From a virus: 64,000 bases of DNA. The stretch lies in UHGV virus genome UHGV-0371537; one strand, 5' to 3'. Position numbers and translations under genes: made by a program. Shown piece after piece: positions 2,774-44,375 of the stretch. The notes beneath the pieces are model-generated. The model was not told the origin of the DNA. It was given only the letters and a program-made list of their open reading frames with translations, and searched no databases. The number at the start of each line of letters is the position of its first letter. Position 1 is the first letter of the stretch.

Positions 2774-2824
2774 TTAACTCTATTCGAATAATATAACGCG
2801 CGAGGAAGATCCATTCCCGTCCGG

Positions 2825-2831
2825 CTAAATA
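2825..2831 (+). promoter_or_regulatory. late-promoter-like CTAAATA motif upstream of the gp6-like gene
   Basis: CTAAATA about 45 nt upstream of ATG 2872; same heptamer recurs before other structural genes. Confidence 0.4.
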
Positions 2832-2871
2832 TCTTCAACACCATATTCAAGATCAGGTGATGGAGATTAAC

Positions 2872-4650
2872 ATGGCCACACAAACAGTTCCCTCACTCGA
2901 TGTCAGAACATACGAGTTCCTTCTTAAGAAGCGAATGAAAGCAGACCCGACCTTCAAAGACTATGATTTTGAAGGTTCCGGCCTCAGTGCCATCATTCGC
3001 CTCTTGGCCTCGGATGCCAATGCCGTCGGGTTCATGCAGAACATGCTGAATGGCGAAAGCCATCTTCACTCTGCCCAACAGCGTTCCAACGTCGGTCTTG
3101 CGGCGGGGTTCCTTTCATACACCCCTGACAACTACAAGGCTGCGTTCCTGTATGCCAACGTAACAGTCACACCGTATGATCCAACAACTGCCCCTGAAAC
3201 GATCGTAATCGATCGACGTGCGATGTTTATTGGTGCAAAGGATGGCAAGTCATACAACTTCACTGTCGAAGCCCCGGCGAGTGCTACTTTGGTGGATGGG
3301 TCTTACAAGTTTGAAAACCTGAAACTGATCCAGGGCAACTGGCTGTACAAGTCATATGATGTCGAAGGAAGTGCGATCTCGTCTTATGTGATCCCTTCTT
3401 CAACTGTAGACATCAATCATATGGTGGTACAGGTGGCGGCTTCGGATACAGCCGATGAGACCAGCACGTACTCTCGTTATGTCAGCCCATTTGACCTGAG
3501 TCAATATGCTCAGCTCTACTTTGTGGAACTTGGCCTGGATGGGATGTACACCTTCGAATTTGGAGATGGGTACATCTGCAAACGTGTGGAAGATGGGAAC
3601 GTCATATATCTACAGTACCTGGAAACGTCTGGCGAAGATGGCAACGACATCACCTCTTTGTCTTCAGCTTCTTCCATCGGTGGATTCAACCTCGTGGATG
3701 TTGAACTGGTGTCCGAGCGTTCTTCCGGTGGTGCGCCACCAGAAAGTATCGAAGACACGAAACGCCTTGCTCCTCTGGCCTACCAGGCCGAGGGCGCGGC
3801 TGTAGCTGAGATGGATTACGCTGTTCTAACAGAACGCTTGTTCTCCAATGTGTCACGCGCCAAAGCATATGGCGGAGATACGCTCTCTCCTCCCGACTCC
3901 GGCTATGTCTACATTGCTGTCATCCCTACTACTGGTGAGTCACTTTCGGACGCGGAGAAGGCAGATATCGTGGCGACGTTAGATAAGTACAACGTTGGCA
4001 CCATCACACCAAAGATCGTCAACGCCGACATCACGTATATCGACGTGACAACAACGGTGTTCTGGGATTCAACATCTACAGCATACAACGAAGAGCAATT
4101 GAAAACCGTTGTTGTAAACGGGGTGCAAAACTGGGGCGCATCTAATCTTGAAGGGTTCGAAGAGTTGTTCGACAAAGAGCAACTGCAAGAAGCCATCACC
4201 AAGATGGATCGTTCTATCGCTTCCAACATCGCTTCGGTGAAATACAAACGTCACTTTAAACCAGATTACGGCGTTCTGGATAGTTTCACTTTCGATTTCG
4301 ACAGATCTATCGCTTCTGGTTCGGTGCGCATCAGTGGGTTTAAACCTCTTCCGGCTGAAGTTGATTTCACGTACTACATACGAGACGTCAATGGTGTGTT
4401 GAATATGTACAAGGTGAGCACCGCCGACACGACGAAAGAATATCTTGTACAGGCTGTGGGTACTGTAGACTATGTGAATGGTGTTGTGGAATTACAGCAG
4501 ATCACAGTTTCGAATTACAACGCCGAAGGAGTAACGATTGTGGTGTCTCCTGATGGACTGAACCAGAACCTACAGGCTGTGCAGAACCAGGTGCTCCGCA
4601 TCGGTGCAGTAACTGTCCTGCCGGAGGTGCGCTATGTCCAAAGATCTTAA
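2872..4650 (+). CDS. gp6: baseplate wedge protein, T4 gp6-like
   Basis: N-terminal DYDFEGSGLSAIIRLLA matches the T4 gp6 DYDFEGS region; track ORF begins at GTG 2857, ATG 2872 has GGAG SD 6 nt upstream; CTAAATA late-promoter motif at 2825. Confidence 0.75.
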   Translation: MATQTVPSLDVRTYEFLLKKRMKADPTFKDYDFEGSGLSAIIRLLASDANAVGFMQNMLNGESHLHSAQQRSNVGLAAGFLSYTPDNYKAAFLYANVTVTPYDPTTAPETIVIDRRAMFIGAKDGKSYNFTVEAPASATLVDGSYKFENLKLIQGNWLYKSYDVEGSAISSYVIPSSTVDINHMVVQVAASDTADETSTYSRYVSPFDLSQYAQLYFVELGLDGMYTFEFGDGYICKRVEDGNVIYLQYLETSGEDGNDITSLSSASSIGGFNLVDVELVSERSSGGAPPESIEDTKRLAPLAYQAEGAAVAEMDYAVLTERLFSNVSRAKAYGGDTLSPPDSGYVYIAVIPTTGESLSDAEKADIVATLDKYNVGTITPKIVNADITYIDVTTTVFWDSTSTAYNEEQLKTVVVNGVQNWGASNLEGFEELFDKEQLQEAITKMDRSIASNIASVKYKRHFKPDYGVLDSFTFDFDRSIASGSVRISGFKPLPAEVDFTYYIRDVNGVLNMYKVSTADTTKEYLVQAVGTVDYVNGVVELQQITVSNYNAEGVTIVVSPDGLNQNLQAVQNQVLRIGAVTVLPEVRYVQRS

Positions 4651-6710: not shown

Positions 6711-6751
6711 CTAAATACCCCTAGATGAAACGAACACATTTAGGGGTATTT
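6711..6751 (+). promoter_or_regulatory. late-promoter-like CTAAATA plus 11-bp hairpin covering the SD region
   Basis: CTAAATACCCCTA (6711-6723) pairs with TAGGGGTATTT (6741-6751); ATG 6755 follows 3 nt later. Confidence 0.5.
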
Positions 6752-6754
6752 GAA

Positions 6755-9736
6755 ATGGCTAATAAACCAACACAGCCTGTTTTCCCTCTCGGTCTGGCGG
6801 CTGAAGAGCAGTCTACTTTGGCTGGTGTCCTCAACACGGGTACGATTGAGCATGGACCAGATGCTGTCCTGACTTTACCAGAGGGTAATGCCAGCGCAGG
6901 ACTCCCGTCTTCCGTTCGCTACAATGCCGACTCCGACGAATTTGAGGGCTTCTATGAAAATGGTGGATGGTTGCCGCTGGGTGGCGGTGGTATCCGCTGG
7001 GAAGTCCTTCCGCATGCCTCTACGGCAACGCTCACTGAAGGGCGAGGCTATCTCATTAATAATACCACAGGGGCATCTACAGTGGTTCTCCCTTCCCCTA
7101 CGCGTATTGGGGATTCCGTTACTATTTGTGATGCTTATGGGAAATTTGCCACTTACCCATTGACCGTGTCTCCTTCTGGAAATAATTTGTATGGCTCCAC
7201 TGAAGACATGGCTATAACAACTGATAACGTATCAGCAACGTTCACTTGGTCTGGACCTGAACAAGGTTGGATTATTACATCCGGCGTCGGTCTTGGCCAA
7301 GGTCGTGTCTACAGTCGTGAAATCTTTACAAAAATTTTGGCGTCTGAAACAAGTTCTGTCGCTCTCAATACTCCACCAACAATTGTGGACGTGTATGCTG
7401 ACGGAAAACGTCTTGCGGAATCCAAATATTCACTAGATGGGAATGTAATCACTTTCAGTCCTTCTTTGCCAGCCAACACAGAACTTCAGGTGATTGAATA
7501 TACTCCTATTCAATTGGGTAATGTCAGTGGTTCTGGTTCTTCTACGATTACCTGGGTCTATAATGGGGGTTCAGCGATTGGTGGTGAAACCGAAATCACG
7601 TTGGACGTCGTTGTTGATGATGTTCCGGCCATTGATATAAACGGAAGTCGCCAGTATAAAAATCTGGGATTCACATTCGATCCATTAACCAGTAAAATCA
7701 CTCTTGCGCAAGAACTGGAACCAGAGGATGAAGTTGTTGTAATTATCAATGGAACACCAAACATCTATAATCAAATTGATTATACTTTGCGGGAAGTTGC
7801 TCGAGCAACCAATGTTAAAGATACAGAGGTCGTTTATTTTAGTGTTGGTGCTGCGTTAAGTGGGTATAAAGTTATTTATGACAAGGAGACGCAAAGGGCT
7901 TATCCCTTGCCTGCTGATATTGTCCCTGGTACTACTGCTGTCAGTCTTAGTTCTTCCGCTATACTTGTGCATTCTGCTGGTAGTGTTGATCTGGGCGCAT
8001 TAGCTGTATCTCGTGAAGAATATGTTACATTGTCTGGGACATTTGATTCTGGTGCTGTCATCAATGTTAAAAATGAATTACTCACCCATACTGATGGAAA
8101 GTATCGTTGGGATGGTACACTTCCTAAAACCGTTGCTCCTGGCTCAACTCTTATGACAACAGGCGGCGTTGGTGTTGGCGCATGGATTAGTGTTGGTGAT
8201 GCTTCATTGAAGTCAGAATTGGCTAAACCTACAGGAGCAGGTTTTTCAGGTTTTGATAAGTCAATTGATTACGAAACTGGTACTGTTGGCAATGCGCTTA
8301 AGAAAATTATAAATGTCAACCCGGATATGTATCCATCATTACAGGATGCGATTGATGCTGCGGCAGCTTTAACAGGTTTAGAACATGCACCAAGTAGTGC
8401 TGCTAACCATCCTGACTGGCTACAACCTAACACTGTAAGCAAAGTTATCAGGCTGAATGGGAAGAAATATCCTATCAGTACGACACTACACATTCACGGA
8501 GATGTTAGCATTGATGCTGGTTTCGGTGGGGTGTACCTCACCGATGACTTCGTTGCAGACTCCTCTGGCTATGCTGTTAAATGCGATAAAGGGACGGGTA
8601 ATCAATACGCTGGGCATATCAGCAACTTATTAATTGATGCCCGTGCAAAAACTGTTAATGGGTTTAAGATATCCGATGGCTATGCTAACAAGTTAGAAGG
8701 CATTTACGTAGCCAACGTTGATGGTCATGGCATCCATATTGCTGGCGGTATGGGTGTGCACCTATTGAAGTTTTATGCTGTTGGTGTATTAAAACCAACT
8801 AATCCGCTCAGCACAGCCCACATTGTTGAAGGTAGCGATCATCAGGTTAGCATGGGTGAAGGTCGTTATTTCCGATTTGGTACCTGGGTTCGTGGTGGTG
8901 GTAATAACAGAATTGGTAAGGTGCACAACTGGGGCATGTATGACGATACAGTCACCGACCAGAACTCAAGGATGAAATGCTGCTTTGTTGTACAGAACTC
9001 AATAAACAATTCCTTCAATCAATGTTTTGCAGATTCTCCATCAAAATGGGACTACACGAAAGCTAATTTAGATCCTGTAGATGGTTATATTAACGGCGGG
9101 ATTGGTTTTTTTATTGATGGTGGAGCCACCGGTAATACGTTCTCTCAATGCCAGACGTTTGTGAATATGAATGCGTTTAATGACGCAGGGTTATCTGCAT
9201 ATGCGGCATCACTAATGCCATTCGCCGTTGGCAGTATCAATTGCTCATTCATTGAGTGTGAAAACTCAAACTCACCAGCATGGGTGGCAAGACTGATAAC
9301 TCATATTTACTCTGTGGATCAGGCATTTACTAACATACTCGCAGCTAAGAATTTTGTTGGTATAGAGTATGATATGGTTTGCAATGGTACAATTTTCAGG
9401 AAAAATGTTGGAGTTCCTGTATTGGTAAGAAATTCAAAGTTCGAGACGCCAACAGCAAGTTATGCGCCTAACTTTTCAGACGCATCTTACATCGCAGCTA
9501 CAGTTACAGGAGATGTAACAATAACACCAGCAGTATTAACAAATACACTAATTGGTTATGTTGAGGTTCTTTTGGCTGTCTATTCAACAACATCTAAAAC
9601 AATAACATTTGGTGCAAATGTTATATTAGCAAGTAGTACCCCATCTTTGACAGCAGCTGGAACACAAGTTTTTAGGTTGTCAACAACTGATGGAGGAACG
9701 ACTTGGTTCTGTAAGTTCGAGAGTGCTTACCCGTAA
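6755..9736 (+). CDS. tailspike protein, long form with N-terminal extension (TSP4-like)
   Basis: Internal anchor domain (aa ~350-510) paralogous to the N-termini of the 9839 and 15080 genes (VSREEYVTL, VKNELLTHT, KYRWDG); track start ATG 6725 lies in a hairpin loop, ATG 6755 follows the CTAAATA motif and hairpin. Confidence 0.8.
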   Translation: MANKPTQPVFPLGLAAEEQSTLAGVLNTGTIEHGPDAVLTLPEGNASAGLPSSVRYNADSDEFEGFYENGGWLPLGGGGIRWEVLPHASTATLTEGRGYLINNTTGASTVVLPSPTRIGDSVTICDAYGKFATYPLTVSPSGNNLYGSTEDMAITTDNVSATFTWSGPEQGWIITSGVGLGQGRVYSREIFTKILASETSSVALNTPPTIVDVYADGKRLAESKYSLDGNVITFSPSLPANTELQVIEYTPIQLGNVSGSGSSTITWVYNGGSAIGGETEITLDVVVDDVPAIDINGSRQYKNLGFTFDPLTSKITLAQELEPEDEVVVIINGTPNIYNQIDYTLREVARATNVKDTEVVYFSVGAALSGYKVIYDKETQRAYPLPADIVPGTTAVSLSSSAILVHSAGSVDLGALAVSREEYVTLSGTFDSGAVINVKNELLTHTDGKYRWDGTLPKTVAPGSTLMTTGGVGVGAWISVGDASLKSELAKPTGAGFSGFDKSIDYETGTVGNALKKIINVNPDMYPSLQDAIDAAAALTGLEHAPSSAANHPDWLQPNTVSKVIRLNGKKYPISTTLHIHGDVSIDAGFGGVYLTDDFVADSSGYAVKCDKGTGNQYAGHISNLLIDARAKTVNGFKISDGYANKLEGIYVANVDGHGIHIAGGMGVHLLKFYAVGVLKPTNPLSTAHIVEGSDHQVSMGEGRYFRFGTWVRGGGNNRIGKVHNWGMYDDTVTDQNSRMKCCFVVQNSINNSFNQCFADSPSKWDYTKANLDPVDGYINGGIGFFIDGGATGNTFSQCQTFVNMNAFNDAGLSAYAASLMPFAVGSINCSFIECENSNSPAWVARLITHIYSVDQAFTNILAAKNFVGIEYDMVCNGTIFRKNVGVPVLVRNSKFETPTASYAPNFSDASYIAATVTGDVTITPAVLTNTLIGYVEVLLAVYSTTSKTITFGANVILASSTPSLTAAGTQVFRLSTTDGGTTWFCKFESAYP

Positions 9737-9740
9737 AACT

Positions 9741-9766
9741 AACCCCCTCTTCGGCAGGGTTCTTGT
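9741..9766 (+). terminator. degenerate copy of the AACCCCGCTTCGGCGGGGTT terminator
   Basis: AACCCCCTCTTCGGCAGGGTT immediately after the tailspike stop at 9736. Confidence 0.35.
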
Positions 9767-9798
9767 TATACCTTTGTTCATAAATTTATTAGTTCAGC

Positions 9799-9834
9799 CT
9801 AAATACCCCATATTGGTCATCCTTTATGGGGTAT
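9799..9834 (+). promoter_or_regulatory. late-promoter-like CTAAATA plus 9-bp hairpin covering the SD region
   Basis: ATACCCCAT (9803-9811) pairs with ATGGGGTAT (9826-9834); ATG 9839. Confidence 0.5.
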
Positions 9835-9838
9835 TATC

Positions 9839-11788
9839 ATGATTTCTCAATTCAATCAACCACGCGGCTCCACTTCCATAGAAGTTAACAAACAATCTAT
9901 CGCTCGAAATTTCGGTGTCAAAGAAGACGAAGTCGTTTATTTCACTGCTGGTATTGATCTCAGTGGATTTAAAGTAATTTATAATGAGTCTACCCAACGG
10001 GCTTATTCTCTTCCTTCAGGTATTGTTTCAGGAACGACTGCTGTTAGTCTTAGTGCTAACGCTGTTCTTATGCACTCAGCTGGTTCTATAGACCTCGGAG
10101 AATTAGCCGTATCTCGTGAAGAATACGTTACATTGCCTGGGTCATTCACCTCGGGTGCTACGCTTAATGTTAAAAATGAATTGCTTACCCATACAACAGG
10201 CAAGTATCGCTGGGACGGGGAATTTCCTAAAACCGTTTCTGCAGGTTCTACCCCTGAATCTGCTGGTGGTGTTGGTCCTAGTGCGTGGGTTAGTGTTGGT
10301 GTTGCTTCTTTAAGAGCAGACCTGGAAAAACCAACAGGGGCAGGATTGATTGGATTTGGCTGTTCTCCATATATAAATAGAAATATTGGAGATGTTCTCC
10401 AGGATATACCAACGAACAAATATTTTGGTGCAAAGTGTGATGGCGTAACTGATGATACTGTAGCTAACCAAACTGCACTTGATTGGTCTGCTGACAATAA
10501 AAGAGATGTTATTTTTGTTGGAAAAAGCTGCATAACAAGCAGACTTGTACACAATTCAGGCTCCAGGGTAACACATCTTGGAGAGATCAAACCTCGTGAT
10601 TTTTCTGATGATGTTGTTATTGAGGTAAAGGACGATGCGTGGCGTGATCCTTACAATGATGGAATAACAGCAATCGATACTGGCGATAGAGTTCATATTG
10701 ATGGTCTATGTATTGCCCCTGACTCTGTAATAGATGCTGTTGGTATTCTTGGCACTGATGGAGTGGATCCGATCATATCAAGATTAAGAACATTCAACAT
10801 GAGAAGGGGAGGAATTAAGATTGTTAAGGGGTATGGATGGAACATATCAAACATTTCAATCATTGCACCTTTTGATCAAAATAACTCTCATGATTATGCA
10901 GGAATTAGGCATGAAACGTCAGATTCATTTTATTCTAGCGTTATAGTTTCAGGATATACTACTGGACTTGATATGCCTGGAAATGCTAATCAAGTATCAA
11001 AGGCCCACTGCTGGGGAATGTCATTACCAGATAGAACCACTCGTAATATGTTATTCGGCCTTAAAATGAGCGGTAGTGGTAATAACGTAGTGCAATTCTA
11101 TTCTGATTCTCCTAAAAAAATTGATAAAACACAAGCTGCAAGCATTACAAATGGTGGGATTGGCTATGTAATTTCTGGTTTTAACAACACATTTTTATCA
11201 CCTAGGAACCTATCTCATCAGGATTGTGGCTTGAAATATGGTAAGGTTTTTCTGATATCTGGTTCTGAGAATACCTTTATTAGCCCCTTAATAGGTGATT
11301 ATGACTACATTGAAGATGATGGATTTTTCACATTTACAGATTCGGCAAGCCCGCTAAACAACTATGTTTATGGTGGCAACATGCAATCTACATATTTGTA
11401 CCCAATTGCAAGTGGTAGCTATAAACCAACTGTAAACATCCCATGCACATACAGCTCTCAAATATATAACCATAATATCATTCAGAAAAATGTTATGGGA
11501 AGAGTTGTTATTACATGCAATATTACAAGTAATTCATCCGACGATCCATTCTATATACAACTGCCACCTTATCTATCAGCTGTATCTGGGATGGCAAGTG
11601 GATCAATAATTAACAACCTTACATCGTCAGTAAGAGCTGATAGCAACCTTTTTGCAGTCGAACCTTATGTTTCAAATGGTAAAATCTACTTCCGTAGATT
11701 ATTTAGATCTGGAGCTGCTGATGATATAAAGCAAAATATGCTTAACACAGGTAATGCTTTCTTTGATATATCAATAAATGCAAGATAA
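9839..11788 (+). CDS. tailspike protein, short form (TSP3-like)
   Basis: N-terminal anchor domain shared with the other three tailspike genes; 649 aa. Confidence 0.8.
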   Translation: MISQFNQPRGSTSIEVNKQSIARNFGVKEDEVVYFTAGIDLSGFKVIYNESTQRAYSLPSGIVSGTTAVSLSANAVLMHSAGSIDLGELAVSREEYVTLPGSFTSGATLNVKNELLTHTTGKYRWDGEFPKTVSAGSTPESAGGVGPSAWVSVGVASLRADLEKPTGAGLIGFGCSPYINRNIGDVLQDIPTNKYFGAKCDGVTDDTVANQTALDWSADNKRDVIFVGKSCITSRLVHNSGSRVTHLGEIKPRDFSDDVVIEVKDDAWRDPYNDGITAIDTGDRVHIDGLCIAPDSVIDAVGILGTDGVDPIISRLRTFNMRRGGIKIVKGYGWNISNISIIAPFDQNNSHDYAGIRHETSDSFYSSVIVSGYTTGLDMPGNANQVSKAHCWGMSLPDRTTRNMLFGLKMSGSGNNVVQFYSDSPKKIDKTQAASITNGGIGYVISGFNNTFLSPRNLSHQDCGLKYGKVFLISGSENTFISPLIGDYDYIEDDGFFTFTDSASPLNNYVYGGNMQSTYLYPIASGSYKPTVNIPCTYSSQIYNHNIIQKNVMGRVVITCNITSNSSDDPFYIQLPPYLSAVSGMASGSIINNLTSSVRADSNLFAVEPYVSNGKIYFRRLFRSGAADDIKQNMLNTGNAFFDISINAR

Positions 11789-11791
11789 ATA

Positions 11792-11822
11792 AGTAGAGCA
11801 GCAACATGATTGCTGCTCTACT
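11792..11822 (+). terminator. perfect 12-bp hairpin after the tailspike stop
   Basis: AGTAGAGCAGCA pairs with TGCTGCTCTACT around a 7-nt loop; weak T-tract. Confidence 0.4.
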
Positions 11823-11834
11823 TTCTCATACAAC

Positions 11835-11978
11835 CTAATTGAAGTTAGTGGGTATATTACAGGAGGTAAAATATTCTTTAGAAGGTTATTCAGAAGCGGC
11901 TCTCCTGTTGATGTTCAGATAACAGATCTGATAACAGGTTATGCATCAATAGACTTGAGCTTTACTTGCCAGCTATAA
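11835..11978 (+). pseudogene. vestigial C-terminal fragment of a tailspike gene
   Basis: Translates to EVSGYITGGKIFFRRLFRSGSPVDVQITDLITGYASIDLSFTCQL*, homologous to the last ~45 aa of the 9839-11788 tailspike (core GKI(F/Y)FRRLFRSG 11 of 12 identical) but divergent at DNA level; no start codon. Confidence 0.6.
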
Positions 11979-11983
11979 ACAAA

Positions 11984-12010
11984 AACCCCGCTTCGGCGGG
12001 GTTAGTTTTA
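11984..12010 (+). terminator. rho-independent terminator (AACCCCGC-TTCG-GCGGGGTT)
   Basis: 8-bp GC-rich stem with TTCG loop followed by T-rich tail. Confidence 0.7.
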
Positions 12011-12278
12011 TCATCAGAATGGTATTGAATCACTGTTGGTAATAGTAGGCTCATTGCCTCTTGGTTGGTTTGGATGCTGTTCAGTATAACCGGTTCCAAC
12101 CAAACCAATGAGGCAGTGGGTAAGGGGGGTTTTTGTTGTACCCCAAACAATTCATTAGGTAGACTGTTTTAGTCAATTACGACTTAACTAACCTGAGAAA
12201 ATCCCTATGGGAAATGAACCAGATAACGTAACTCTAGCCAGACTCGAAGAGAGACTGAGAAACATTTTCGAAAACCAA

Positions 12279-12305
12279 AACCCCGCTTCGGCGGGGTTCT
12301 TATTA
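12279..12305 (+). terminator. rho-independent terminator, second exact copy
   Basis: Identical 20-mer AACCCCGCTTCGGCGGGGTT followed by CTTATTAT. Confidence 0.7.
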
Positions 12306-12336
12306 TATCCATGTTCATAAATTTTATTAGTTCAGG

Positions 12337-12373
12337 CTAAATACCCCATATTGGCAAATCCTCTATGGGGTAT
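12337..12373 (+). promoter_or_regulatory. late-promoter-like CTAAATA plus 9-bp hairpin covering the SD region
   Basis: ATACCCCAT (12341-12349) pairs with ATGGGGTAT (12365-12373); ATG 12380. Confidence 0.5.
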
Positions 12374-12379
12374 CTTCAA

Positions 12380-15022
12380 ATGACCAGAAACGTCGAGAGC
12401 ATCTTTGGAGCGGTCGTAACAGCTCCGCACCAGATTCCATACACTTACACAGCAACGGGCGGAGAGAAGTTTATCTCCCTCCCGTTCTATCCTGTTACGG
12501 GCTTCATCACCATCAATGGGGGTGTTCAGGTTCCGACAGACAATTTCGAAATCGATGGTAACACTGTCAACCTGGGTCGAGCACTTGAGACCGGGGATGT
12601 TGTGTATTGCTTGTTTGACAAGATCCTGTCTCCAGAAGATTATGAAAACGGGATCCGCATCTACAAGTTCCAGACCGTTGGTAACGAGACCTCATTCACC
12701 CCAGACTTCACGACATATGGTGTGCAGTCTCTGTATGTTGACGGGAAGTTCCAGGTGCCGGACGTCAACTACACGTATTCCCCAACCAATGGTGTCGTTA
12801 ATTTCCTGACTGGATCTCCGGCGGCTGGTGTTTGGGTTGTTGCAGAAATGTCTGTGAAGCAGCCAAACATTTCCCCTCTCTTCGATAGAACAATTCAAGA
12901 AGTGGCCAGATCTGCGAAAGTTAAGGACTCGGATGTTGTTATCGCTGTATCCGGTGCTTCACTTTCTTCCAAGAAAGTCATCTTTGATAAAACTGCGCAA
13001 AGATGGTACTCGCTGTCAACCGGGTTGACTTCCACGGTGGTCAGTTTGGTTGATGGAATCCTCACTCACTCTTCAGGTACTGTTGATTTAGGTGCGCTGG
13101 CGGTTACTCGTGGCGAATATTTCACCATGTCTGAAACCTTCACAACCGGGTTCACAATCAGAGTGAAGAATGAGATCGTCAGCGACGGAACATATCTTTA
13201 TCGCTGGGCTGGTAGTTTGCCAAAAGTTGTTTCCGCTGGAACAACCGTGGACAACACCGGGGGTGTGAGTGCGAGTGCCTGGGTGAGATCAGATCAAAGA
13301 ACCATCAGCACCGTCAAGAGACAACTACAGCAATCCTACACGATGGCAGAATTAGTGGCCAAAACTGACATACAGTTGGGCGACTCTTTCCTTTGCTCGG
13401 ACAGGGCATATGGTGTTTATGACGTCGTTTCTTCGGTGGCTTACCCACCAAATGGTTATTCGAACGTAGTCAGCACAGTGAACTCCGGTTTGGTGTTCAG
13501 ACTGCGTGTGGTTGCTAACACAATCGATTTGGAGCAAATTGGTGGTAAGCCTCTCATCTGGGGAACCCAAGAAATCGACTGTAAACAGGCGTTGCAGGAA
13601 GCTTTCTATCTCTTGCTCGACTCCGAGAGCGCGACGGTTGATCTGAAGTCCAACAAATGGTTGCTGTCATCTTATGTGTTCAACGACGTCAAACAGCGCC
13701 GGAAAATTGTTGGTAACAACGCCATTATCTATGGGATGCCAGATGACGGTGTGACCAACTATGATTACCTGGTGAGTACTGCATGGAACTACCAAGACAT
13801 CGAAGGTGTTACGTTCGACTGTCAGTGGAACCCTCGTTATGCATGCTGTCTCCGTATCACTCATGGGTACGGACGATACGATGGCCTGACGATTCGTAAA
13901 GCTCGTTGCGCCATTCAGGTTGGTAAGAGCGAGGAAAGCCGGGTCAGCCTCAGCGAATTCATGTTCACACAACTTCGCACTGAAGAATGTGCGAAAGTCG
14001 CAATTGTTCACGGGCTTTATTCTGTGCTTAACATCAGCGATTCCATCGTGGCTTGCGGCGAGGGCGCTTTCTGGAAAACATATGACTGTACCGGGTTCAC
14101 CATCTATGGTGGTCGCGTATTCCTGATGAAATGTGGGGGCAACAGCAACGTCATCAACTTAGACAACCCTTATGTCTATTGCGCAAATACCACGGTTGCA
14201 GGCGCTCCATATATCGGTTCGTTCAACGCAGTGCAGTGCGACTTTGAATTCAGGACTCGCTTCTGCATCGTGAACGATACGACGACAGTTTATCAAGATT
14301 ACAACCAAGCAGTTGTTCTTGATTCTTGCCGAATTGGTGTATTCGCCAGCCTGGACTCTCGTGCGTTGAATTTCTTTGAAAGTAACGTCGGATACCGTGG
14401 GCAGCTCCGGATTAAGAACACAGATCTTCTGTTCGACACCACCGTGTCTCTGCCGCCGATCAAAGCTGGTGGGCATACCATCGTGGATATTGATTATGAT
14501 TCGATCTACATTCCTAACTTCAGGGGTCCAAAGATGGTCAGCTTCGCTGGTTATCCTCCGGTTCTTCCAGTCGGGATTGTGTTCCAGAACAACGTTGGGG
14601 CTGACACTCCTCTTTCTGGTAACCAGTTTGTGAACTTTTCTAACCCGATCATTGGCTTGGATTCTGATTCCTCTCTGCTTAGCAGCAACTGGAACTCGTC
14701 CACCAAGAAATTCGAATTGCCTCCTGGTGGCTTGAGTGATGTTACCGTCACTGTACGTCTGACATTGAAAGATCCTGCCACCGCCCCGGTGACAGCGTTG
14801 GTGGAATACAACAACGGCACAGCGATTGGACTTGCATTCGGGACAATCCCGGTTGGATCCAAAGATCTTTTGATCACTGGCAGGATCCGGGATCTTCGAG
14901 ATACAGCCCAGATATATTGTATCACGAGTTCTACAGCGGCGTACACCCTCAGCAATACCGGGGCATATGACTCTACTATGACAATTGAGGCCAGCATTCG
15001 GCCTCCGAAGACTAAAAGTTAA
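12380..15022 (+). CDS. tailspike protein, long form (TSP2-like)
   Basis: Internal anchor domain (VTRGEYFTM, VKNEIVSDGTYLYRW); track start ATG 12365 lies in the 3-prime arm of the promoter-proximal hairpin, ATG 12380 is in frame 15 nt downstream. Confidence 0.75.
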   Translation: MTRNVESIFGAVVTAPHQIPYTYTATGGEKFISLPFYPVTGFITINGGVQVPTDNFEIDGNTVNLGRALETGDVVYCLFDKILSPEDYENGIRIYKFQTVGNETSFTPDFTTYGVQSLYVDGKFQVPDVNYTYSPTNGVVNFLTGSPAAGVWVVAEMSVKQPNISPLFDRTIQEVARSAKVKDSDVVIAVSGASLSSKKVIFDKTAQRWYSLSTGLTSTVVSLVDGILTHSSGTVDLGALAVTRGEYFTMSETFTTGFTIRVKNEIVSDGTYLYRWAGSLPKVVSAGTTVDNTGGVSASAWVRSDQRTISTVKRQLQQSYTMAELVAKTDIQLGDSFLCSDRAYGVYDVVSSVAYPPNGYSNVVSTVNSGLVFRLRVVANTIDLEQIGGKPLIWGTQEIDCKQALQEAFYLLLDSESATVDLKSNKWLLSSYVFNDVKQRRKIVGNNAIIYGMPDDGVTNYDYLVSTAWNYQDIEGVTFDCQWNPRYACCLRITHGYGRYDGLTIRKARCAIQVGKSEESRVSLSEFMFTQLRTEECAKVAIVHGLYSVLNISDSIVACGEGAFWKTYDCTGFTIYGGRVFLMKCGGNSNVINLDNPYVYCANTTVAGAPYIGSFNAVQCDFEFRTRFCIVNDTTTVYQDYNQAVVLDSCRIGVFASLDSRALNFFESNVGYRGQLRIKNTDLLFDTTVSLPPIKAGGHTIVDIDYDSIYIPNFRGPKMVSFAGYPPVLPVGIVFQNNVGADTPLSGNQFVNFSNPIIGLDSDSSLLSSNWNSSTKKFELPPGGLSDVTVTVRLTLKDPATAPVTALVEYNNGTAIGLAFGTIPVGSKDLLITGRIRDLRDTAQIYCITSSTAAYTLSNTGAYDSTMTIEASIRPPKTKS

Positions 15023-15030
15023 TTAACACA

Positions 15031-15050
15031 AGCCCTCTTCGGAGGGCTTT
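15031..15050 (+). terminator. rho-independent terminator between tailspike genes
   Basis: AGCCCTC-TTCG-GAGGGCT followed by TTTAACAT. Confidence 0.6.
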
Positions 15051-15079
15051 AACATGACTAAAACAACAGGAGATTCGTT

Positions 15080-17347
15080 ATGAATCCGCAATTTTCACAG
15101 CCGAAAGGCGCTGTCTCCAAAGAGACAAACAAAGACTCTATTGCACGCAAATTCGGTTGCAAGAAGTCTGAGGTTCTGTATGCCAAGACGGGCGCTGCCC
15201 TGACCGGTTACAAGGTGATCTATGATAAGGTCACTCAGCGCTCCTATGCTCTGCCTTCTAACCTGCCCGCTGGCGCTACCATCACCAGCTTGGCAGATGG
15301 TGTTCTTGTACATTCTGGCGGCACTGTAGACCTCGGAGCACTCGCTGTACTTCGGGAAGAGTTCGTAACTCTGGTTGAGAATTTCACTTCCGGGTTTACG
15401 ATTCGGGTCAAGAATGAAGTCGTGAGTGATGGAACGTACCTGTATCGTTGGGGTGGTTCGTTACCAAAGACCGTCAATGCTTCATCAACTGTTGCTGGGA
15501 CGGGTGGGATTTCTCCTAGTGCTTGGGTGGGCGTGGGAAACACTTCATTTTTGGGTGTTGACGGCGCAACATTAGTGGGGTATCAAAACCCTCGTTCAAC
15601 TGTGAACGAAACAATAAAATCCGCTCTTGATAAAATAAACATGAAAGTTATCTTTGCGGCGGATTGGGGTGTTAAAACTGATTCGTCTGATAACCAGGAT
15701 TCTTTGTGGTCCTTGGGTCAATATCTCTCTGCGTCTACGGAACCGCTGTACGTTGTATTTCCTAGGGGGATAAGTTTGGTCGGGTCACAGCAGTTTGCCG
15801 GGGCGTCTTCGCAAGGATATTCTTATCGACCCAACTATTTACGCCGCTCATGGGCGGACTTGTCCGCCGCTGGTTGGTTTTCCATCAGTGAGACTAATCA
15901 AAAGATCGTCTTAGACATGACCGGGTGGACTTTAAAACTGAACTCTGGATTCAAGCTCGGTTCATTTGATCCGATAACCGGAAATCCCGCACCCGATTCT
16001 CCATCAGAAGATTTAAATTTTATGGCGTCTTCTGGGTATATGATTAAGCTGTATCTCGCACCAAATGTGGAAATTTTGAATGGAACCACTGATGGTAACT
16101 TAACAGGTGCTATTTGGGGTGGTACTTATGGTCCAGCAGGGTATCAAGTCCCAGCATACAATATGTGGATTAATCAATCTGAAGGCGTTTACATATCTCG
16201 GCATACTTTTAAAAACTCTGCCGTTGACGGATTGTATCTTCAAGCCACAGGGAATAGAAATTTCCTAGACATTATCCCCAAAACCATTATCGACAACTGC
16301 ATCATAACAGACTGCGGTCGTAATTGTTATTCTCTCACTGGGGCTGCAAATGTTGAGATGAGAAACATCATTATAACCCGATCGGGTTCAAAGGCCAATG
16401 GCATTTCTACGCACGCAAGTGATCCGCAAGCAGGGGTGGACATTGAAGCGGAAGGTGGCAACCCATATAACATAACCTTCATTAATCCTAAGATCGTTGA
16501 TTGTGCTAAGAACGCTCTTATGACCGTGTCGGTGCCAGGAACTGTCAACGATGTGACTGTAGATGGAGGGGTTATTCACAGTTATTCAGAATTGGGCGCT
16601 GTGTTTAATTCAGGAAACTCTCGTAACATTAAATTCAAAAACGCCACTATAATTGGTGGGGTAATTGATTCTAAAAGCCCTGCAGAAATGGGTTTGGAAT
16701 GTTATTCATTCGAAAACTGCACGTTTGCAAACAGATATGGTAACACCTATGCAATGAATTATCTACTTTCTTTCCGAGTTAGTAAATTTGTTGGTAATAC
16801 CATTGATTTTAATATCCCCACCACTGGGGTAACAGCTCCGACCATCGTTATCAATGATCAAGATGGGGTTGCTAACGGTTACTCGTTAGAACGCTGTAAA
16901 CAGAATCGTATTATCCTGACCGGAAATGCTGCTAATATCACCTATGCCAACGGATTGGGGGGATTTAACTTTTTCCGCAATGCTGAAGTGTTTGTTGAAG
17001 CAGGGGGCATGACGGGAACAACGAAGATGTTGGTAGACACATGTTCTGCAGCGCCTGGAGGCATGCTTACAAATTCTGCTAACTTCAACTTTGGTGTCAC
17101 CATGACTAAAGATACAAGTCGGAATTTATGGTATGCTGCTAAACAATCTTATGTGGGTAGCGTACTGACAGCGGCTCCCACGGCGGCAGGCTCCCAGAAT
17201 GGAAGCCTGGATTTAGGGAGCGTGAATGGAAGATTTCGGACTGGATATTTCGATTCTGGGGTGATTGTCAGGGACGGAGTAACTGGTACGCATTATAGAG
17301 TGCGAGTTACCAGCGGTTCTCTGAATATTGTGGCGGATGAAAATTAA
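15080..17347 (+). CDS. tailspike protein, short form (TSP1-like)
   Basis: N-terminal anchor domain (VLREEFVTL, VKNEVVSDGTYLYRW); AGGAG SD; terminator upstream at 15031. Confidence 0.8.
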   Translation: MNPQFSQPKGAVSKETNKDSIARKFGCKKSEVLYAKTGAALTGYKVIYDKVTQRSYALPSNLPAGATITSLADGVLVHSGGTVDLGALAVLREEFVTLVENFTSGFTIRVKNEVVSDGTYLYRWGGSLPKTVNASSTVAGTGGISPSAWVGVGNTSFLGVDGATLVGYQNPRSTVNETIKSALDKINMKVIFAADWGVKTDSSDNQDSLWSLGQYLSASTEPLYVVFPRGISLVGSQQFAGASSQGYSYRPNYLRRSWADLSAAGWFSISETNQKIVLDMTGWTLKLNSGFKLGSFDPITGNPAPDSPSEDLNFMASSGYMIKLYLAPNVEILNGTTDGNLTGAIWGGTYGPAGYQVPAYNMWINQSEGVYISRHTFKNSAVDGLYLQATGNRNFLDIIPKTIIDNCIITDCGRNCYSLTGAANVEMRNIIITRSGSKANGISTHASDPQAGVDIEAEGGNPYNITFINPKIVDCAKNALMTVSVPGTVNDVTVDGGVIHSYSELGAVFNSGNSRNIKFKNATIIGGVIDSKSPAEMGLECYSFENCTFANRYGNTYAMNYLLSFRVSKFVGNTIDFNIPTTGVTAPTIVINDQDGVANGYSLERCKQNRIILTGNAANITYANGLGGFNFFRNAEVFVEAGGMTGTTKMLVDTCSAAPGGMLTNSANFNFGVTMTKDTSRNLWYAAKQSYVGSVLTAAPTAAGSQNGSLDLGSVNGRFRTGYFDSGVIVRDGVTGTHYRVRVTSGSLNIVADEN

Positions 17348-17446: not shown

Positions 17447-17453
17447 CTAAATA
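17447..17453 (+). promoter_or_regulatory. late-promoter-like CTAAATA motif upstream of the 1612-aa gene
   Basis: CTAAATA 35 nt upstream of ATG 17488, downstream of terminator 17394-17424. Confidence 0.4.
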
Positions 17454-23959: not shown

Positions 23960-24676
23960 CTAAATACCTTCAAACGTATTTCTGATAAATTCGATAATAC
24001 GACTTTCATGTTTAAACCATTCAGTCGCACCGTCAAATCCCTTGTAGTTCATACTAAATGACATTTCATGAGCCTTTCTTTCCAGTTCTAACACGAATTG
24101 TCCATCATTTGACTTAAAAACTTCTAGAACATTGAACTCAAATGGAGTTGATCTTCTTAAAGATTTAAATCTATTATTTGGTGAATTGGACACCCCGATT
24201 TTCATACAGCCTTCTTCGCTGGTCAATATGTACAAATAACCGACTTTAAAAGGATTGTATCCGGAAGTTGCGCAGTAGGGGCACCAACTTTTACCATTCA
24301 CCAAATTACAGTATCTTGACTCCCAACGATGTCCTTCTGAACATTCCATAAGGCAAACTGTCACATTATCTTTATACTTTCCACCAATAAATTCTATGAA
24401 TTTACCACCGTTGGTTTCAGCATGGTCGGTTATTCTCTTTTTAGATTCTTGCTGGGTATTTCTCTTGTTGCCATTACATGTTGGGCACCAACTGCCTTTA
24501 TTGATCAAATTTCCATAAGATGCTGAACTCCATTGATGCCCTTCACCACACTGTAATATACATTTTGTCTGATTAGTGATAAATTTATCACCAACGAATC
24601 CCTGGAACAAACCACCTTTAGATAAGGCATATTTGTGAAGATTTTGAATAGCAGTTTCTTCTGTCAGGATTTTCAT
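23960..24676 (-). CDS. T5orf172 (GIY-YIG superfamily) domain protein with two N-terminal zinc ribbons; homing-endonuclease-like
   Basis: Two repeats C-x4-C..GH.W....C.L.N.KSWCP.C then GYLYIL....MKIGVSN....R..SLRR.....EWF, typical of T5orf172/MUG113; opposite strand between two neck genes. Confidence 0.65.
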   Translation of the reverse strand: MKILTEETAIQNLHKYALSKGGLFQGFVGDKFITNQTKCILQCGEGHQWSSASYGNLINKGSWCPTCNGNKRNTQQESKKRITDHAETNGGKFIEFIGGKYKDNVTVCLMECSEGHRWESRYCNLVNGKSWCPYCATSGYNPFKVGYLYILTSEEGCMKIGVSNSPNNRFKSLRRSTPFEFNVLEVFKSNDGQFVLELERKAHEMSFSMNYKGFDGATEWFKHESRIIEFIRNTFEGI

Positions 24677-24733
24677 ATTATCTAACCTTTAACAATATTC
24701 AACTAAATATATTTAAATCCTGAGGAATAGATC

Positions 24734-37161: not shown

Positions 37162-37190
37162 TAATTAAAACAATGGCTTACGTCCTAACA

Positions 37191-37220
37191 AACCCCGCTT
37201 CGGCGGGGTTTTTGTTTGTT
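37191..37220 (+). terminator. rho-independent terminator after the major capsid gene, third exact copy
   Basis: AACCCCGCTTCGGCGGGGTT followed by TTTGTTTGTT. Confidence 0.75.
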
Positions 37221-39732: not shown

Positions 39733-39835
39733 ATTTTAAATTTATTCAATAAACGGGGTTTACTTCTTCAATAAACCCCGTATACTTCATTCCATAAGCA
39801 GCACAACACTGACTCTGAAATGAAGGAACTACACC

Positions 39836-40132
39836 ATGAACAATATGCCAACCACCAAAACTGCTCTGGAAATCGATTCTCGCTTTATCGTTGAAGCATG
39901 GGCAAATAGCCAAAATGCGTATGTGTACTCCCTTTATATCGGCGACACCTATATTTCTTGTCTCGGTATCGACGGTTCTGTGAACGAGCACGGCGTGAAC
40001 GAGCGCTATACCAAGAAGCAGGCTATCGCGGATGCTACCAAATTCGCAACCGACATTCTGGATCGCATCAAAGCAGGCAAGCCGTACAAACGCGGTGAAA
40101 AGGGCTATGCCACCCAATTGCTCGGCGCTTGA
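39836..40132 (+). CDS. hypothetical protein (98 aa)
   Basis: ORF in small-gene cluster. Confidence 0.45.
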   Translation: MNNMPTTKTALEIDSRFIVEAWANSQNAYVYSLYIGDTYISCLGIDGSVNEHGVNERYTKKQAIADATKFATDILDRIKAGKPYKRGEKGYATQLLGA

Positions 40133-40201
40133 TTTGTTCTAAATCTTTGAACGGGGTATGTTAACTGCATACCCTTATCCCTACAAATAGAGGACTTTAC
40201 C

Positions 40202-40546
40202 GTGGCAAACGAAACCAAGGCAACGAAATCTGTGGAGATTCCCCACATCGTCAAGTTCGAAAAGCCGAGCGAGCGTAAACCGCGCAAAACTCGCCGCTTG
40301 GTCACCAAGTTGGACCTCCTGAAACAGAAGTTTGGCAACCACAGTGTGTTCACCCGCATTCGTAATGCATTAAAGGAAGGGCGAACCGAGCTGGAGCTAT
40401 ACCGTCCGAACGGTTCGACACGTGCGTATCAGACCACCGACGGCTTGCTGGAACTGATCCGCCTGAGCGGGATGACGATCGAACCTCGTTCGTCAGGCAC
40501 TCCCCTGTGCTCCCTCTATGTCATCGGCAATCTTGGGGCGCTGTAA
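40202..40546 (+). CDS. hypothetical basic protein (114 aa)
   Basis: GTG start with GAGGA SD 6-7 nt upstream. Confidence 0.4.
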   Translation: MANETKATKSVEIPHIVKFEKPSERKPRKTRRLVTKLDLLKQKFGNHSVFTRIRNALKEGRTELELYRPNGSTRAYQTTDGLLELIRLSGMTIEPRSSGTPLCSLYVIGNLGAL

Positions 40547-40551
40547 GTTCT

Positions 40552-40974
40552 ATGAAGAAGTATATCGTTGTCATCACTGGTTCCCGCTCAATTACCGAGC
40601 GGGATAAGGTCTTCGCCAAGCTGGATGAACTCCTCGATCCTCATGAAGTCTACACATTGATCGAGGGTGAGGCCAATGGTGTGGACAAGATTTGTCGCGA
40701 TTGGGCTGAAATCAATTATGTTGATGTCACTCCTATGCCGATCCCATCGGGCTATTATGAAAAATATGGCAAAGGGATGGGCAACAAACGCAATCAGGAC
40801 ATGTTAGACAAGGCATTGGATCTCGCTAGGCAGACTAAGCTGGAGGTGTATCCGATTGCGATGTGGGATGGTTCGTCCACTGGCACCCTGGACATGATAA
40901 ACAGGCTGAAGAAGGCAGGTCTCCCTGTGGATATCACTCTGATGGGTAAACCCAAAACCAAGCGCCTTTTGTAA
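40552..40974 (+). CDS. SLOG/DprA-like Rossmann-fold protein (140 aa)
   Basis: VVITGSRSI...GEANGVDK...W resembles the GSR...G..G.D signature of SLOG/DprA/LOG-type domains; ATG 40552. Confidence 0.4.
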   Translation: MKKYIVVITGSRSITERDKVFAKLDELLDPHEVYTLIEGEANGVDKICRDWAEINYVDVTPMPIPSGYYEKYGKGMGNKRNQDMLDKALDLARQTKLEVYPIAMWDGSSTGTLDMINRLKKAGLPVDITLMGKPKTKRLL

Positions 40975-41186
40975 CCTGTCATAAATAATCTGAGTTCACA
41001 CAGCGGAGATACATCATGTTTGTCGTCAATCTGTTCTGCTATATCTTCACGGCTTACTTCCTTGCAGCAGTAGCGCATGAGACGTATACTGATCTGAAGG
41101 AGGGCGAATACGCCGACTGGAAGGTCTATGCCAAGAAGTTCGCTCGCAAGTTCTGGTCCAACTTCGTTTACAAACTACCCTGATCC

Positions 41187-41217
41187 CTAAATACCCCCAT
41201 CATCCATGGGGGTATTT
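41187..41217 (+). promoter_or_regulatory. late-promoter-like CTAAATA plus perfect 12-bp hairpin
   Basis: AAATACCCCCAT (41189-41200) pairs with ATGGGGGTATTT (41206-41217); ATG 41222. Confidence 0.5.
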
Positions 41218-43626: not shown

Positions 43627-44372
43627 TGGCATCTCTCCAGGCTCTCAGAAAGCTGAACGACTTCGAAAATCGTCACTACACATTCCAGCAGTATGAACTC
43701 CCATACAAAGAACTGGAGTGTGTGACGACGGAGAATGGTCGACATTATGTGTCTCCGACTGGCGTCAAACTCACGTCTGTCACAACGATGCTGGGTCGAA
43801 CCGGAGACCATGAATGGCTCGAAGCCTGGAGGGAGAAGTTGGGCGCAGAGGCCGCCGATCTTGAGACCATGCGTTGTGCGGAACGTGGGGAGAAGCTGCA
43901 TCTTGCGTGTGAATTGTATTTGAAGAACCGCCCAATGAAAGAAGTGCTCGAGGCGGCTGGTGAATACATGTTCATGTTCAAGCAACTCTTCCCATACCTG
44001 AACAAGATGACCAAGATCTATGCTCAGGAGATTCCATTATATAGCGAAGTCCTTGGCCTCGCTGGGCGCGTAGACCTCATCGGGGTGTATGAGGGCAAAC
44101 CAGCCATAATCGACTTCAAGACCTCCAATGTAATGAAGACTCGGGGTATGATTGAGGACTACAGCATCCAGCTGTGTCTATACTCAGTCATGTTCCAACA
44201 GATGTTCGGCGTGAAGATCACCCGGTTGATAAACGTCATCGCCAACGAATCCTCTTTGAACCCAACTATCATCGAGTTCCATCGTGATGACATCCTGAGC
44301 AAGATGTTTGAGCGTGTCCGCCTGTACCATCGCATGGATAAAGAACAGAACGGAGTCTGGGCGAACCACTAA
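43623..44372 (+). CDS. PD-(D/E)xK nuclease-like protein (249 aa)
   Basis: GRVDLIGVYEGKPAIIDFKTS fits a D...(D/E).K core; sits between UvsY-like and UvsW-like genes. Confidence 0.45.
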   Translation: MMASLQALRKLNDFENRHYTFQQYELPYKELECVTTENGRHYVSPTGVKLTSVTTMLGRTGDHEWLEAWREKLGAEAADLETMRCAERGEKLHLACELYLKNRPMKEVLEAAGEYMFMFKQLFPYLNKMTKIYAQEIPLYSEVLGLAGRVDLIGVYEGKPAIIDFKTSNVMKTRGMIEDYSIQLCLYSVMFQQMFGVKITRLINVIANESSLNPTIIEFHRDDILSKMFERVRLYHRMDKEQNGVWANH

Positions 44373-44375
44373 ATA
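44369..44375 (+). promoter_or_regulatory. late-promoter-like CTAAATA motif upstream of the UvsW-like gene
   Basis: CTAAATACCCCAT inside the 3-prime end of the upstream gene, 26 nt before ATG 44401. Confidence 0.4.

Follow-up and report, generated by a model that had tools for sequence, protein, structure and literature searches.

Why should a phage place what appears to be a promoter and the ribosome-binding site (RBS) of the gene behind it in the two arms of one hairpin? The question is raised by a window of 64,000 nucleotides (nt) of the virus genome UHGV-0371537, the whole stretch of DNA analysed here, in which the heptamer CTAAATA lies shortly before the start codons of four genes (ATG 6755, 9839, 12380 and 41222), three encoding tailspikes (A, B and C) and one a conserved virion protein, each time fused to a hairpin over the Shine-Dalgarno (SD) region. 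By megablast, the window belongs to the Ackermannviridae, in the ViI/CBA120/LIMEstone-like group. The box is enriched, the hairpins cover the SD sequences, the units are conserved, the arms match the SD type of their own gene, and the geometry is that of phage T4 gene e. We propose that the units are probably translational gates of the type known for T4 e, soc, 49 and I-TevI, i.e. RBS masks embedded in a promoter, here in a different phage family.

Recurrence and placement of the CTAAATA box

CTAAATA occurs 12 times in the window, compared to 3.96 +/- 2.05 times in shuffled sequences (maximum 9), and 0 of 100 shuffles reach 12, a count against chance that bears out the recurrence noted in a preliminary description of this DNA. 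The + strand holds 11 of the 12 copies, and with the sole exception of the copy at 23960 these lie 24-42 nt 5' of start codons, each preceded by a plausible SD sequence, in front of genes for baseplate, tailspike, sheath, scaffold and other virion proteins. The extended motif TAAATACCCC is present in exactly five copies in the window, at 6712, 9800, 12338, 41188 and 44370. As in T4-type late promoters, the box is A/T-rich and similar to TATAAATA, lacks a -35 element, is over-represented and lies just 5' of late genes.

Across 28 candidate late promoters of the related Dickeya phage LIMEstone1 and 13 boxes of the window, pyrimidines predominate at +1 to +4 after the box and are followed by an A-rich stretch at +5 to +8, with a pyrimidine at each of +1 to +4 in 19-23 of the 28 LIMEstone1 boxes. 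A short tract resembling an anti-SD sequence is a general property of these late promoters, which explains the weak pairings of 5-6 base pairs (bp) at 17447, 28978 and 44369. The LIMEstone1 record has 'putative late promoter' annotated at the orthologues of 2825, 6711, 28978, 34841, 40981, 41187 and 44369, and the late promoters predicted for ViI-like phages (phiSboM-AG3, PMC3121705; LIMEstone1, PMC3296691) have the same box at the same positions, with promoters and terminators listed separately. Judged by sequence and position, CTAAATA is presumably a late promoter. For the ViI-like group a 'CTAAATAcCcc' motif was reportedly given by Adriaenssens and co-workers in 2012 in Arch Virol.

Hairpins over the ribosome-binding sites

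All four genes have the hairpin; the energies given here refer to the segment from box to ATG and the z-scores to slightly longer folded segments. At tailspike A, the box (6711..6717, + strand) leads into a 16-bp stem, UAAAUACCCCUAGAUG/CAUUUAGGGGUAUUUG, with arms 6712-6727/6737-6752, a loop of 9 nt and the SD-like GGGG at 6743-6746 (-21.0 kcal/mol, z -7.2), and the unit from box to ATG is invariant in 14 related genomes. The hairpin of tailspike B (box 9799..9805, + strand; hairpin 9802..9835) combines 11 bp, 9802-9812/9825-9835, with a GG/CC mini-stem at 9815-16/9821-22 and covers GGGG at 9828-9831 (-19.6 kcal/mol, z -5.1). That of tailspike C (box 12337..12343, + strand; hairpin 12341..12373) is formed by 10 bp, 12341-12350/12364-12373, and a 2-bp GG/CC mini-stem, with GGGG at 12367-12370 and an in-frame ATG at 12365 within the 3' arm (-16.3 kcal/mol, z -2.8). 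For the conserved protein of 242 amino acids (aa; box 41187..41193, + strand), a 12-bp stem, 41189-41200/41206-41217, closes a loop of 5 nt, covers GGGGG at 41208-41212 and is followed by UCUU (-17.2 kcal/mol, z -3.5), as conserved in 20 genomes.

The 5' arm begins 1-4 nt inside the box at every site and consists of the last 3-6 box bases, (A)AAUA, and the C-tract, while the 3' arm is formed by the G-tract SD region and UAU(UU) and ends 2-6 nt before the ATG. The G-tracts are located 7-9 nt before the AUG, which is the correct SD spacing. The preliminary description had reported CCCC(C)AT pairing with ATGGGG(G) at these four genes in stems of 9-12 bp that end 3-6 nt before the start codon. The hairpins and their position over the GGGG SD sequence stand; the tract at 6711 is instead CCCCTA/TAGGGG, and the stems and distances are those given above.

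A fifth instance precedes a gp6-like baseplate gene (unit 2823..2877, + strand, box 2825-2831, ATG 2872; z -3.4). Here AUCUUCAaCACC pairs with GGUGaUGGAGAU over the GGAG SD sequence (2831-2837/2861-2867, SD 2862-2865), a short helix joins 2839-2842 to 2856-2859, and a GGCUA/UGGCC helix covers part of AUG 2872 (2823-2827/2873-2877). The architecture is that of the four units with different arm sequences, and the arms of LIMEstone1 gp6 equal those at 2825. We note a CGCGCGAG-type motif (aacgcgcgaggaag) at 2790-2810, approximately 25-35 nt 5' of the gp6 box, which is kept in all three clades of orthologues despite differing non-coding surroundings.

The gp6-like gene had been listed in the preliminary description among genes with a box and no hairpin, which needs to be revised. 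The listing holds for the box of the 1612-aa structural gene (17447..17453, + strand), which has no significant hairpin in our folding, as is also the case for the + strand boxes at 24703, 28978 and 34841 and the ATAAATA at 40981. The likewise listed UvsW-like gene (ATG 44401; CTAAATACCCC box at 44369..44375, + strand) has the C-tract and a CCCA/UGGG stem of 4-5 bp (z -0.6, free-energy difference, ddG, 4.1), and its unit counts as a weak or degenerate case.

When upstream sequence is part of the RNA, the four hairpins (-16 to -21 kcal/mol) and that of gp6 place the SD sequence or AUG in a stable local helix, with a probability of 0.00-0.17 that the SD sequence is unpaired in this read-through form. 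At the sequence level, the 5' strand overlaps the late box or lies before the presumed late start. The computed cost of opening the region -16 to +3 is 17-23 kcal/mol in the read-through form and 6-9 in the late form without the 5' arm, a drop of 9.5-14.2 at the four sites compared to 5.1 at gp6 and approximately 0-4 kcal/mol at the other boxes, except 40981. The latter, with a computed drop of 9.9, was rejected as an instance, since its local folding is not significant (z +1.0, +1.6).

Matching and conservation of the arms

For all combinations of sites, we calculated the duplex energy of the 17 nt at and after the box with the 22 nt that precede the start codon, and compared the cognate pairs to 10,000 permutations. 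Cognate pairs of the window reach a mean of -9.19 kcal/mol versus -5.52 +/- 0.82 when permuted, and those of LIMEstone1, of which the whole genome (HE600015) was assembled and every box scanned, -8.73 versus -5.27 +/- 0.47 kcal/mol; in neither set does any of the 10,000 permutations attain the cognate mean. The window test is conservative, as the script took the in-frame ATG 12365 for the start at 12380.

The box-in-hairpin design is found again at LIMEstone1 sites outside the span of the window, with other arm sequences that each fit the SD sequence of their own gene. These are the endolysin ORF070 (record position 54283, - strand; TTAAATACCTTCGCAttcatTGCGGAGGTATTTTCTTATG, arms TTAAATACCTTCGCA..TGCGGAGGTATTT, -22.9 kcal/mol), I-LimII, an intron-encoded endonuclease in the DNA polymerase gene (139324, + strand; CTAAATACTCTTTA..AAGGAGTAT, hairpin over AAGGAG), the 55-aa membrane protein ORF191 (147904, + strand; ATAAATATCCTCGC..GTGAGGATAT) and the structural protein ORF173 (135157, + strand; CTAAATACCCCATAC..GTGTGGGGTAT). 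This matching of arm and SD sequence between sites is the strongest evidence for a presumed selection on pairing with the SD sequence. A strong cognate hairpin is present at 9 of 28 LIMEstone1 sites and at 4 of 13 in the window, or 5 of 13 with the correct 12380 start. The T4 genome (KJ477686.1), run through the same script, has 21 exact TATAAATA sites next to start codons, where only gene e shows complementarity between box-adjacent sequence and RBS (-13.1) and the permutation at the level of the whole set is not significant (1217/10,000). The promoter-in-hairpin arrangement concerns about one third of the late promoters here and is the exception in T4.

Orthologues of the four units, 10-20 loci per unit retrieved from IMG/VR, are nearly invariant from box to ATG, while the protein identity of the flanking coding sequence goes down to 52-86%. 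The few changes comprise loop bases, a single C to U that yields a G.U pair (in the most distant genome pair, at the site of ORF129, the LIMEstone1 orthologue of 41222-41950) and one GGGGC variant. In endolysin orthologues, three pairs switch among C-G, U.G and G.U, with 98.7% of cells staying paired. Among gp6 orthologues, one clade has AUCUCC/GGAGAU, with the outer helix changed on both sides from G-C to A-U, and a more distant clade carries AGCUCUAA/UUGGAGUU, with U-A replaced by G.U through changes on both sides. The G.U pairs fit RNA of the sense strand and neither a DNA cruciform nor antisense RNA. Still more distant gp6 homologues (31-43% identity) were uninformative, as gp6 is there packed against the preceding gene without a promoter.

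Proposed mechanism and comparison with T4

We propose that each unit would operate as follows. A gp55-type late promoter (NTAAATA and a pyrimidine tract) would be fused to the hairpin. RNA started upstream, i.e. early or middle RNA or read-through of an upstream late operon, would carry both arms, fold and hide the RBS. RNA from the unit's own late promoter would start approximately 5-7 nt after the box, without the 5' arm, and be translated. The late box of T4 is located approximately one helical turn upstream of the start site (Geiduschek and Kassavetis, PMC2988020), and with this spacing, pyrimidines at +1 to +4 and A-rich sequence at +5 to +8, late RNA would have its first nucleotide at the C-tract's end or beyond and therefore lack the 5' arm. 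The first base of the late 5' untranslated regions would be the purine with which the C-tract closes, giving AUCAUCCAUGGGGGUAUUUUCUUAUG in the case of 41222. That CTAAATA is the late promoter, that late RNA starts at this position, that RNA reads through the units and that translation changes accordingly are inferences from the sequence.

The upstream context of each unit would determine which RNA is silenced. The box at 41187 is preceded by four small same-strand open reading frames (ORFs; 39836-41183) and a sigma-70-like promoter, TTTACT-16-TATACT (39759..39786, + strand), annotated as a putative early promoter at the orthologous position of LIMEstone1, with no terminator-like site between this promoter and the box. 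The logic of silent early and active late RNA put forward in the preliminary description is evident only here, and likely applies also to the endolysin and intron endonuclease of relatives. Upstream of 6711, a late operon of gp6-gp7-ORF161-like genes stops 8 nt before the box and has no terminator; transcripts begun at the 2825 promoter should therefore pass 6711 with the hairpin intact. As the tailspike sites follow late genes, silenced RNA there would be late read-through rather than early RNA, and the gate would separate it from own-promoter RNA.

In T4, as described in section 29 of the review by Uzan and Miller (PMC3014915), the SD sequence and/or AUG of e, soc, 49 and I-TevI is sequestered on early or middle read-through RNA, with an approximately 100-fold difference given for e, and the SD sequence or AUG of soc, 49 and I-TevI is free on RNA from the late promoter beside the RBS (Gott et al. 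1988; Gibb & Edgell 2010, via PMC3014915). We fetched and folded the leader of T4 gene e (tTATAAATACCTTCTATAAATACTTAGGAGGTATTATG), which forms the stem AAUACCUUCU/AGGAGGUAUU (-14.9 kcal/mol, z -4.2). Its late promoters are reportedly embedded in a hairpin that sequesters the RBS, a finding attributed to McPheeters and co-workers in 1986. As in the units studied here, the 5' arm comprises the 3' part of the box and the pyrimidine tract (AAUACCUUCU) and the 3' arm the SD sequence and UAU (AGGAGGUAUU); the stem ends at the AUG, and the late start is located inside or after the 5' arm, as we propose. The Ackermannviridae endolysin leader (TTAAATACCTTCGCA..TGCGGAGGTATTT) and that of T4 e are near look-alikes in sequence. 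The analogy to e and soc drawn in the preliminary description thereby holds in all its sequence-level predictions, i.e. geometry, start-site position, opening cost and arms that track the SD sequence.

The systems also differ. The box is C/T/A-TAAATA here and TATAAATA in T4, most cases in the window pair a C-tract with a G-tract (GGGG SD) compared to CCUUC/GGAGG in T4 e, and each unit has one promoter, compared to T4 e with its second box in the loop. In T4, the same script finds A/T-rich sequence after the late promoters. The pyrimidine or C-tract after the box is distinctive of the Ackermannviridae promoters. The genes here encode tailspikes, baseplate and virion proteins in late clusters, in contrast to T4 e, a lysis gene in an early region; the LIMEstone1 endolysin and I-LimII are direct counterparts of T4 e and I-TevI, and the 41222 gene resembles soc as a virion protein 3' of small same-strand ORFs with a sigma-70-like promoter. 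The units would represent a known trick of the T4 lysozyme gene in another phage family, used there far more often. When the papers on AG3, LIMEstone1 and CBA120 were searched for hairpin, stem and promoter terms, no mention of a box joined to an RBS hairpin turned up.

Several points weigh against such a gate. The literature search returned no transcript 5' ends, timing, translation data or transcriptome study for Ackermannviridae. Of the late machinery made up in T4 by gp55, gp33 and gp45, the window encodes a gp45 clamp homologue, and no homologues of gp55 or gp33 were detected among the 17 window ORFs scanned against PHROGs; LIMEstone1 has both annotated, as ORF091 and ORF053, and by synteny the window ends before the gp55 region. 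For gp6, there is no same-strand upstream gene, and no source of upstream same-strand RNA was identified. The three tailspike sites are in a purely late cluster, and since 9799 and 12337 lie approximately 40 nt 3' of a terminator-type hairpin, there may be little read-through RNA to silence. Near-invariance of the four units leaves little support from covariation within their orthologues, with only wobble-type and few two-sided changes, at endolysin and gp6. Their loop sequences are conserved too, which hints at a further sequence-specific constraint. Finally, the pyrimidine tract is inherently anti-SD, so that short complementarities at other boxes may be by-products.

Alternative explanations

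The alternative that fares best, though we consider it unlikely, is that the hairpins mainly act on the upstream gene, as intrinsic terminators or by stabilising its 3' end, and overlap the next promoter and RBS by coincidence, such that insulation is transcriptional. In its favor, the 41187 stem is followed by UAUUUUCUU and its Kuttervirus-type orthologues by the terminator-like CCCCCAaaauUGGGGGUAUUUUUAUG, and the LIMEstone1 endolysin site has the tail GGUAUUUUCUUAUG. However, of the four hairpins only that at 41187 has a U-rich tail (6/8), other instances end in UAUGGUCAUG, UAUAAUCAUG or UUAACAUG, and three of the four have loops of 9-13 nt and merely four T in the 8 nt after the G-tract. 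Rho-independent terminators have a G+C-rich stem, a loop of 3-8 nt and then a U-run, a combination that the four hairpins lack, and the terminator scan lists none of them but does list UUCG hairpins at 11984, 12279, 17394, 30934, 35761 and 37190. Dedicated terminators are already in place approximately 40 nt upstream of 9799 and 12337, and the agreement of the arms with the SD type of the downstream gene would serve no purpose in a terminator. Termination could plausibly be an additional role of the hairpins at 41187 and the endolysin, with their UAUUUUCUU tails, and is a misfit at the other sites. The LIMEstone1 terminator annotations by ORF129 and the endolysin have coordinates on the start of the coding sequence instead of the hairpins and were not used as evidence.

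Less probable again is an element acting at the DNA level, i.e. a homology anchor or recombination junction for the swapping of tailspike modules, or a protein-binding palindrome, with RNA pairing being incidental. Homology 5' of the tailspike B and C units indeed breaks at the box while the sequence from box to ATG stays identical, loops included, and a cassette of approximately 110 nt is duplicated upstream of 9839 and 12380. Such a break is nevertheless expected, because the upstream genes end in variable receptor-binding domains. The same architecture is found at the non-mosaic genes ORF129, gp6, endolysin and intron endonuclease, the arm spacing of 5 to 13 nt is ill-suited to a dimeric DNA-binding site, and the G.U pairs of orthologues, tolerated in sense RNA, would be mismatches in a DNA cruciform.

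Translational coupling, where a ribosome terminating on the upstream ORF would melt the 5' arm and open the downstream RBS on polycistronic RNA, appears very improbable. It would suit 41187, where the stop of a 55-aa ORF precedes the box by 3 nt and the 5' arm by 5 nt, and 6711 with its upstream stop 8 nt away, but not 9799 and 12337, where the upstream stops are approximately 60 and 550 nt distant, the LIMEstone1 endolysin with a gap of approximately 25 nt, or gp6 with no upstream same-strand gene at all; the fusion of the arm to the promoter box would also be left unexplained. That the promoter's pyrimidine tract and a purine-rich SD sequence pair unavoidably and without function is hardly credible, for although the bias to pyrimidines at +1 to +4 and the statistically unsupported 5-6-bp pairings at 17447, 28978 and 44369 are compatible with it, the stems of 10-16 bp reach past CCCC/GGGG into site-specific bases (UA/UA, AUA/UAU, CAU/AUG, UAGAUG/CAUUUA), cognate pairs beat non-cognate ones in 10,000/10,000 permutations, and both arms are invariant where flanking coding sequence falls to 52-65% identity.

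Tailspike cassettes and implications

The surroundings of the tailspike units are repetitive. A terminator-type hairpin with a T-rich tail, AACCCCGCTTCGGCGGGGTT (12279..12298, + strand), lies 39 nt 5' of the box at 12337, with an identical UUCG-tetraloop copy at 11984-12003 and a decayed copy at approximately 9741-9761, before 9799. The direct repeat of approximately 110 nt, 9737-9838 and 12270-12379, comprises the terminator hairpin, TTCTTRTTATA, GTTCATAAATTT(T)ATTAGTTCAG, the CTAAATA box and the RBS hairpin, and the 590-nt spacer between tailspikes B and C (11789-12379) has no long ORF and holds the two identical UUCG hairpins. In relatives, homology 5' of the tailspike B and C units ends exactly at the box, with at least 4-6 unrelated upstream contexts; several relatives lack the terminator, and there the preceding tailspike gene ends immediately 5' of the box. 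A sigma-70 promoter in the conserved GTTCATAAATTTATTAGTTCAG segment 5' of tailspikes B and C, seen by eye only, was rejected for its poor spacing of 18-19 nt and 4/6 hexamer matches.

A broader reading, which we offer tentatively and regard as somewhat doubtful, is that the cassette of an optional UUCG terminator, late box, RBS mask and conserved N-terminal anchor serves as general insulation. Each tailspike, virion or lysis gene would then depend for its translation on RNA from its own replication-coupled promoter, receptor-binding modules could move between phages with expression unaffected, and the cassette edge would be the recombination boundary. In T4, by comparison, the mask now and then serves a late gene that lies isolated in an early region. 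The PeSL (promoter-early stem-loop) cassettes of T4-type phages, described by Arbiol and co-workers in 2010, are said to have been proposed as mediators of modular shuffling. They resemble the present arrangement in that a repeated intergenic stem-loop and promoter flank exchangeable genes, here as UUCG terminator, late box and RBS hairpin before tailspikes B and C with homology breaking at the edge, and differ in carrying early sigma-70 promoters rather than RBS masks.

Should the gate work as in T4, translation of tailspikes, baseplate, endolysin and intron endonuclease would be tied to the gene's own late promoter and not to the mere presence of mRNA. ViI/CBA120/LIMEstone-type phages are common in biocontrol and tailspike engineering, where keeping or losing the 40-nt unit should alter expression. 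Annotation is affected too, as ORF callers choose ATGs within hairpins and related records label nearby sequence as terminators. It is the pervasiveness and extreme conservation of the units that set the arrangement apart, and, being short, invariant and numerous, they represent a clean system for assessing how frequent promoter-embedded RBS masks are outside T-even phages.

Genes of the window and further boxes

By megablast, the structural block of the window shares 87-89% identity with Salmonella phage pSal-SNUABM-02, Escherichia phage YX22, Shigella phage ChubbyThor and Dickeya phage LIMEstone1, while the tailspike region is mosaic and matches Salmonella phage vB_CECAV_050 with up to 95.7% identity over 63% of the query. 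The PHROG scan identified the gp6-like baseplate wedge subunit (2872-4650), four tailspike proteins (6755-9736, 9839-11788, 12380-15022 and 15080-17347), the conserved 242-aa protein (phrog_2114; 41222-41950, + strand), whose orthologue ORF129 is annotated as a confirmed structural protein, a homologue of the gp45 sliding clamp (phrog_223; 46621-47289) and a RegA-like translational repressor (49472-49936).

For tailspikes A and C, mechanical ORF calling begins at the in-frame ATGs 6725 and 12365 within the hairpins (6725..9736 and 12365..15022). Judging from conservation and the distance to the SD sequence, the true starts are 6755 and 12380, and the N-termini of both proteins are liable to mis-annotation. 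The fourth tailspike gene (ATG 15080; spacer 15023-15079) has no CTAAATA box; upstream of it are a UUCG hairpin (15030-15049) and an AGGAG SD sequence left unmasked, and it is therefore probably expressed by read-through of the tailspike C transcript. The UUCG-tetraloop hairpin AACCCCGCTTCGGCGGGGTT recurs as AAACCCCGCTTCGGCGGGGTTT at 37190-37211, directly after a 443-aa capsid-like gene.

Two further boxes have an unusual placement. At 24703-24716, two boxes are arranged back to back in the palindrome CTAAATATATTTAA, a CTAAATA on the + strand for ATG 24734 and a TTAAATA on the - strand for a 238-aa minus-strand gene, and at the equivalent position of LIMEstone1 late promoters are annotated on both strands. 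The CTAAATA at 23960-23966 (+ strand) is antisense to a minus-strand gene (23960..24676) and overlaps its stop codon, CTA being TAG on the minus strand; no + strand ORF of at least 60 aa is found behind it. Its LIMEstone1 equivalent (record 112806, minus strand) has box, hairpin AUACCUUCA/UGAGGGUAU and ATG, and the box at 23960 may belong to a small ORF missing from the annotation or to late transcription in antisense.

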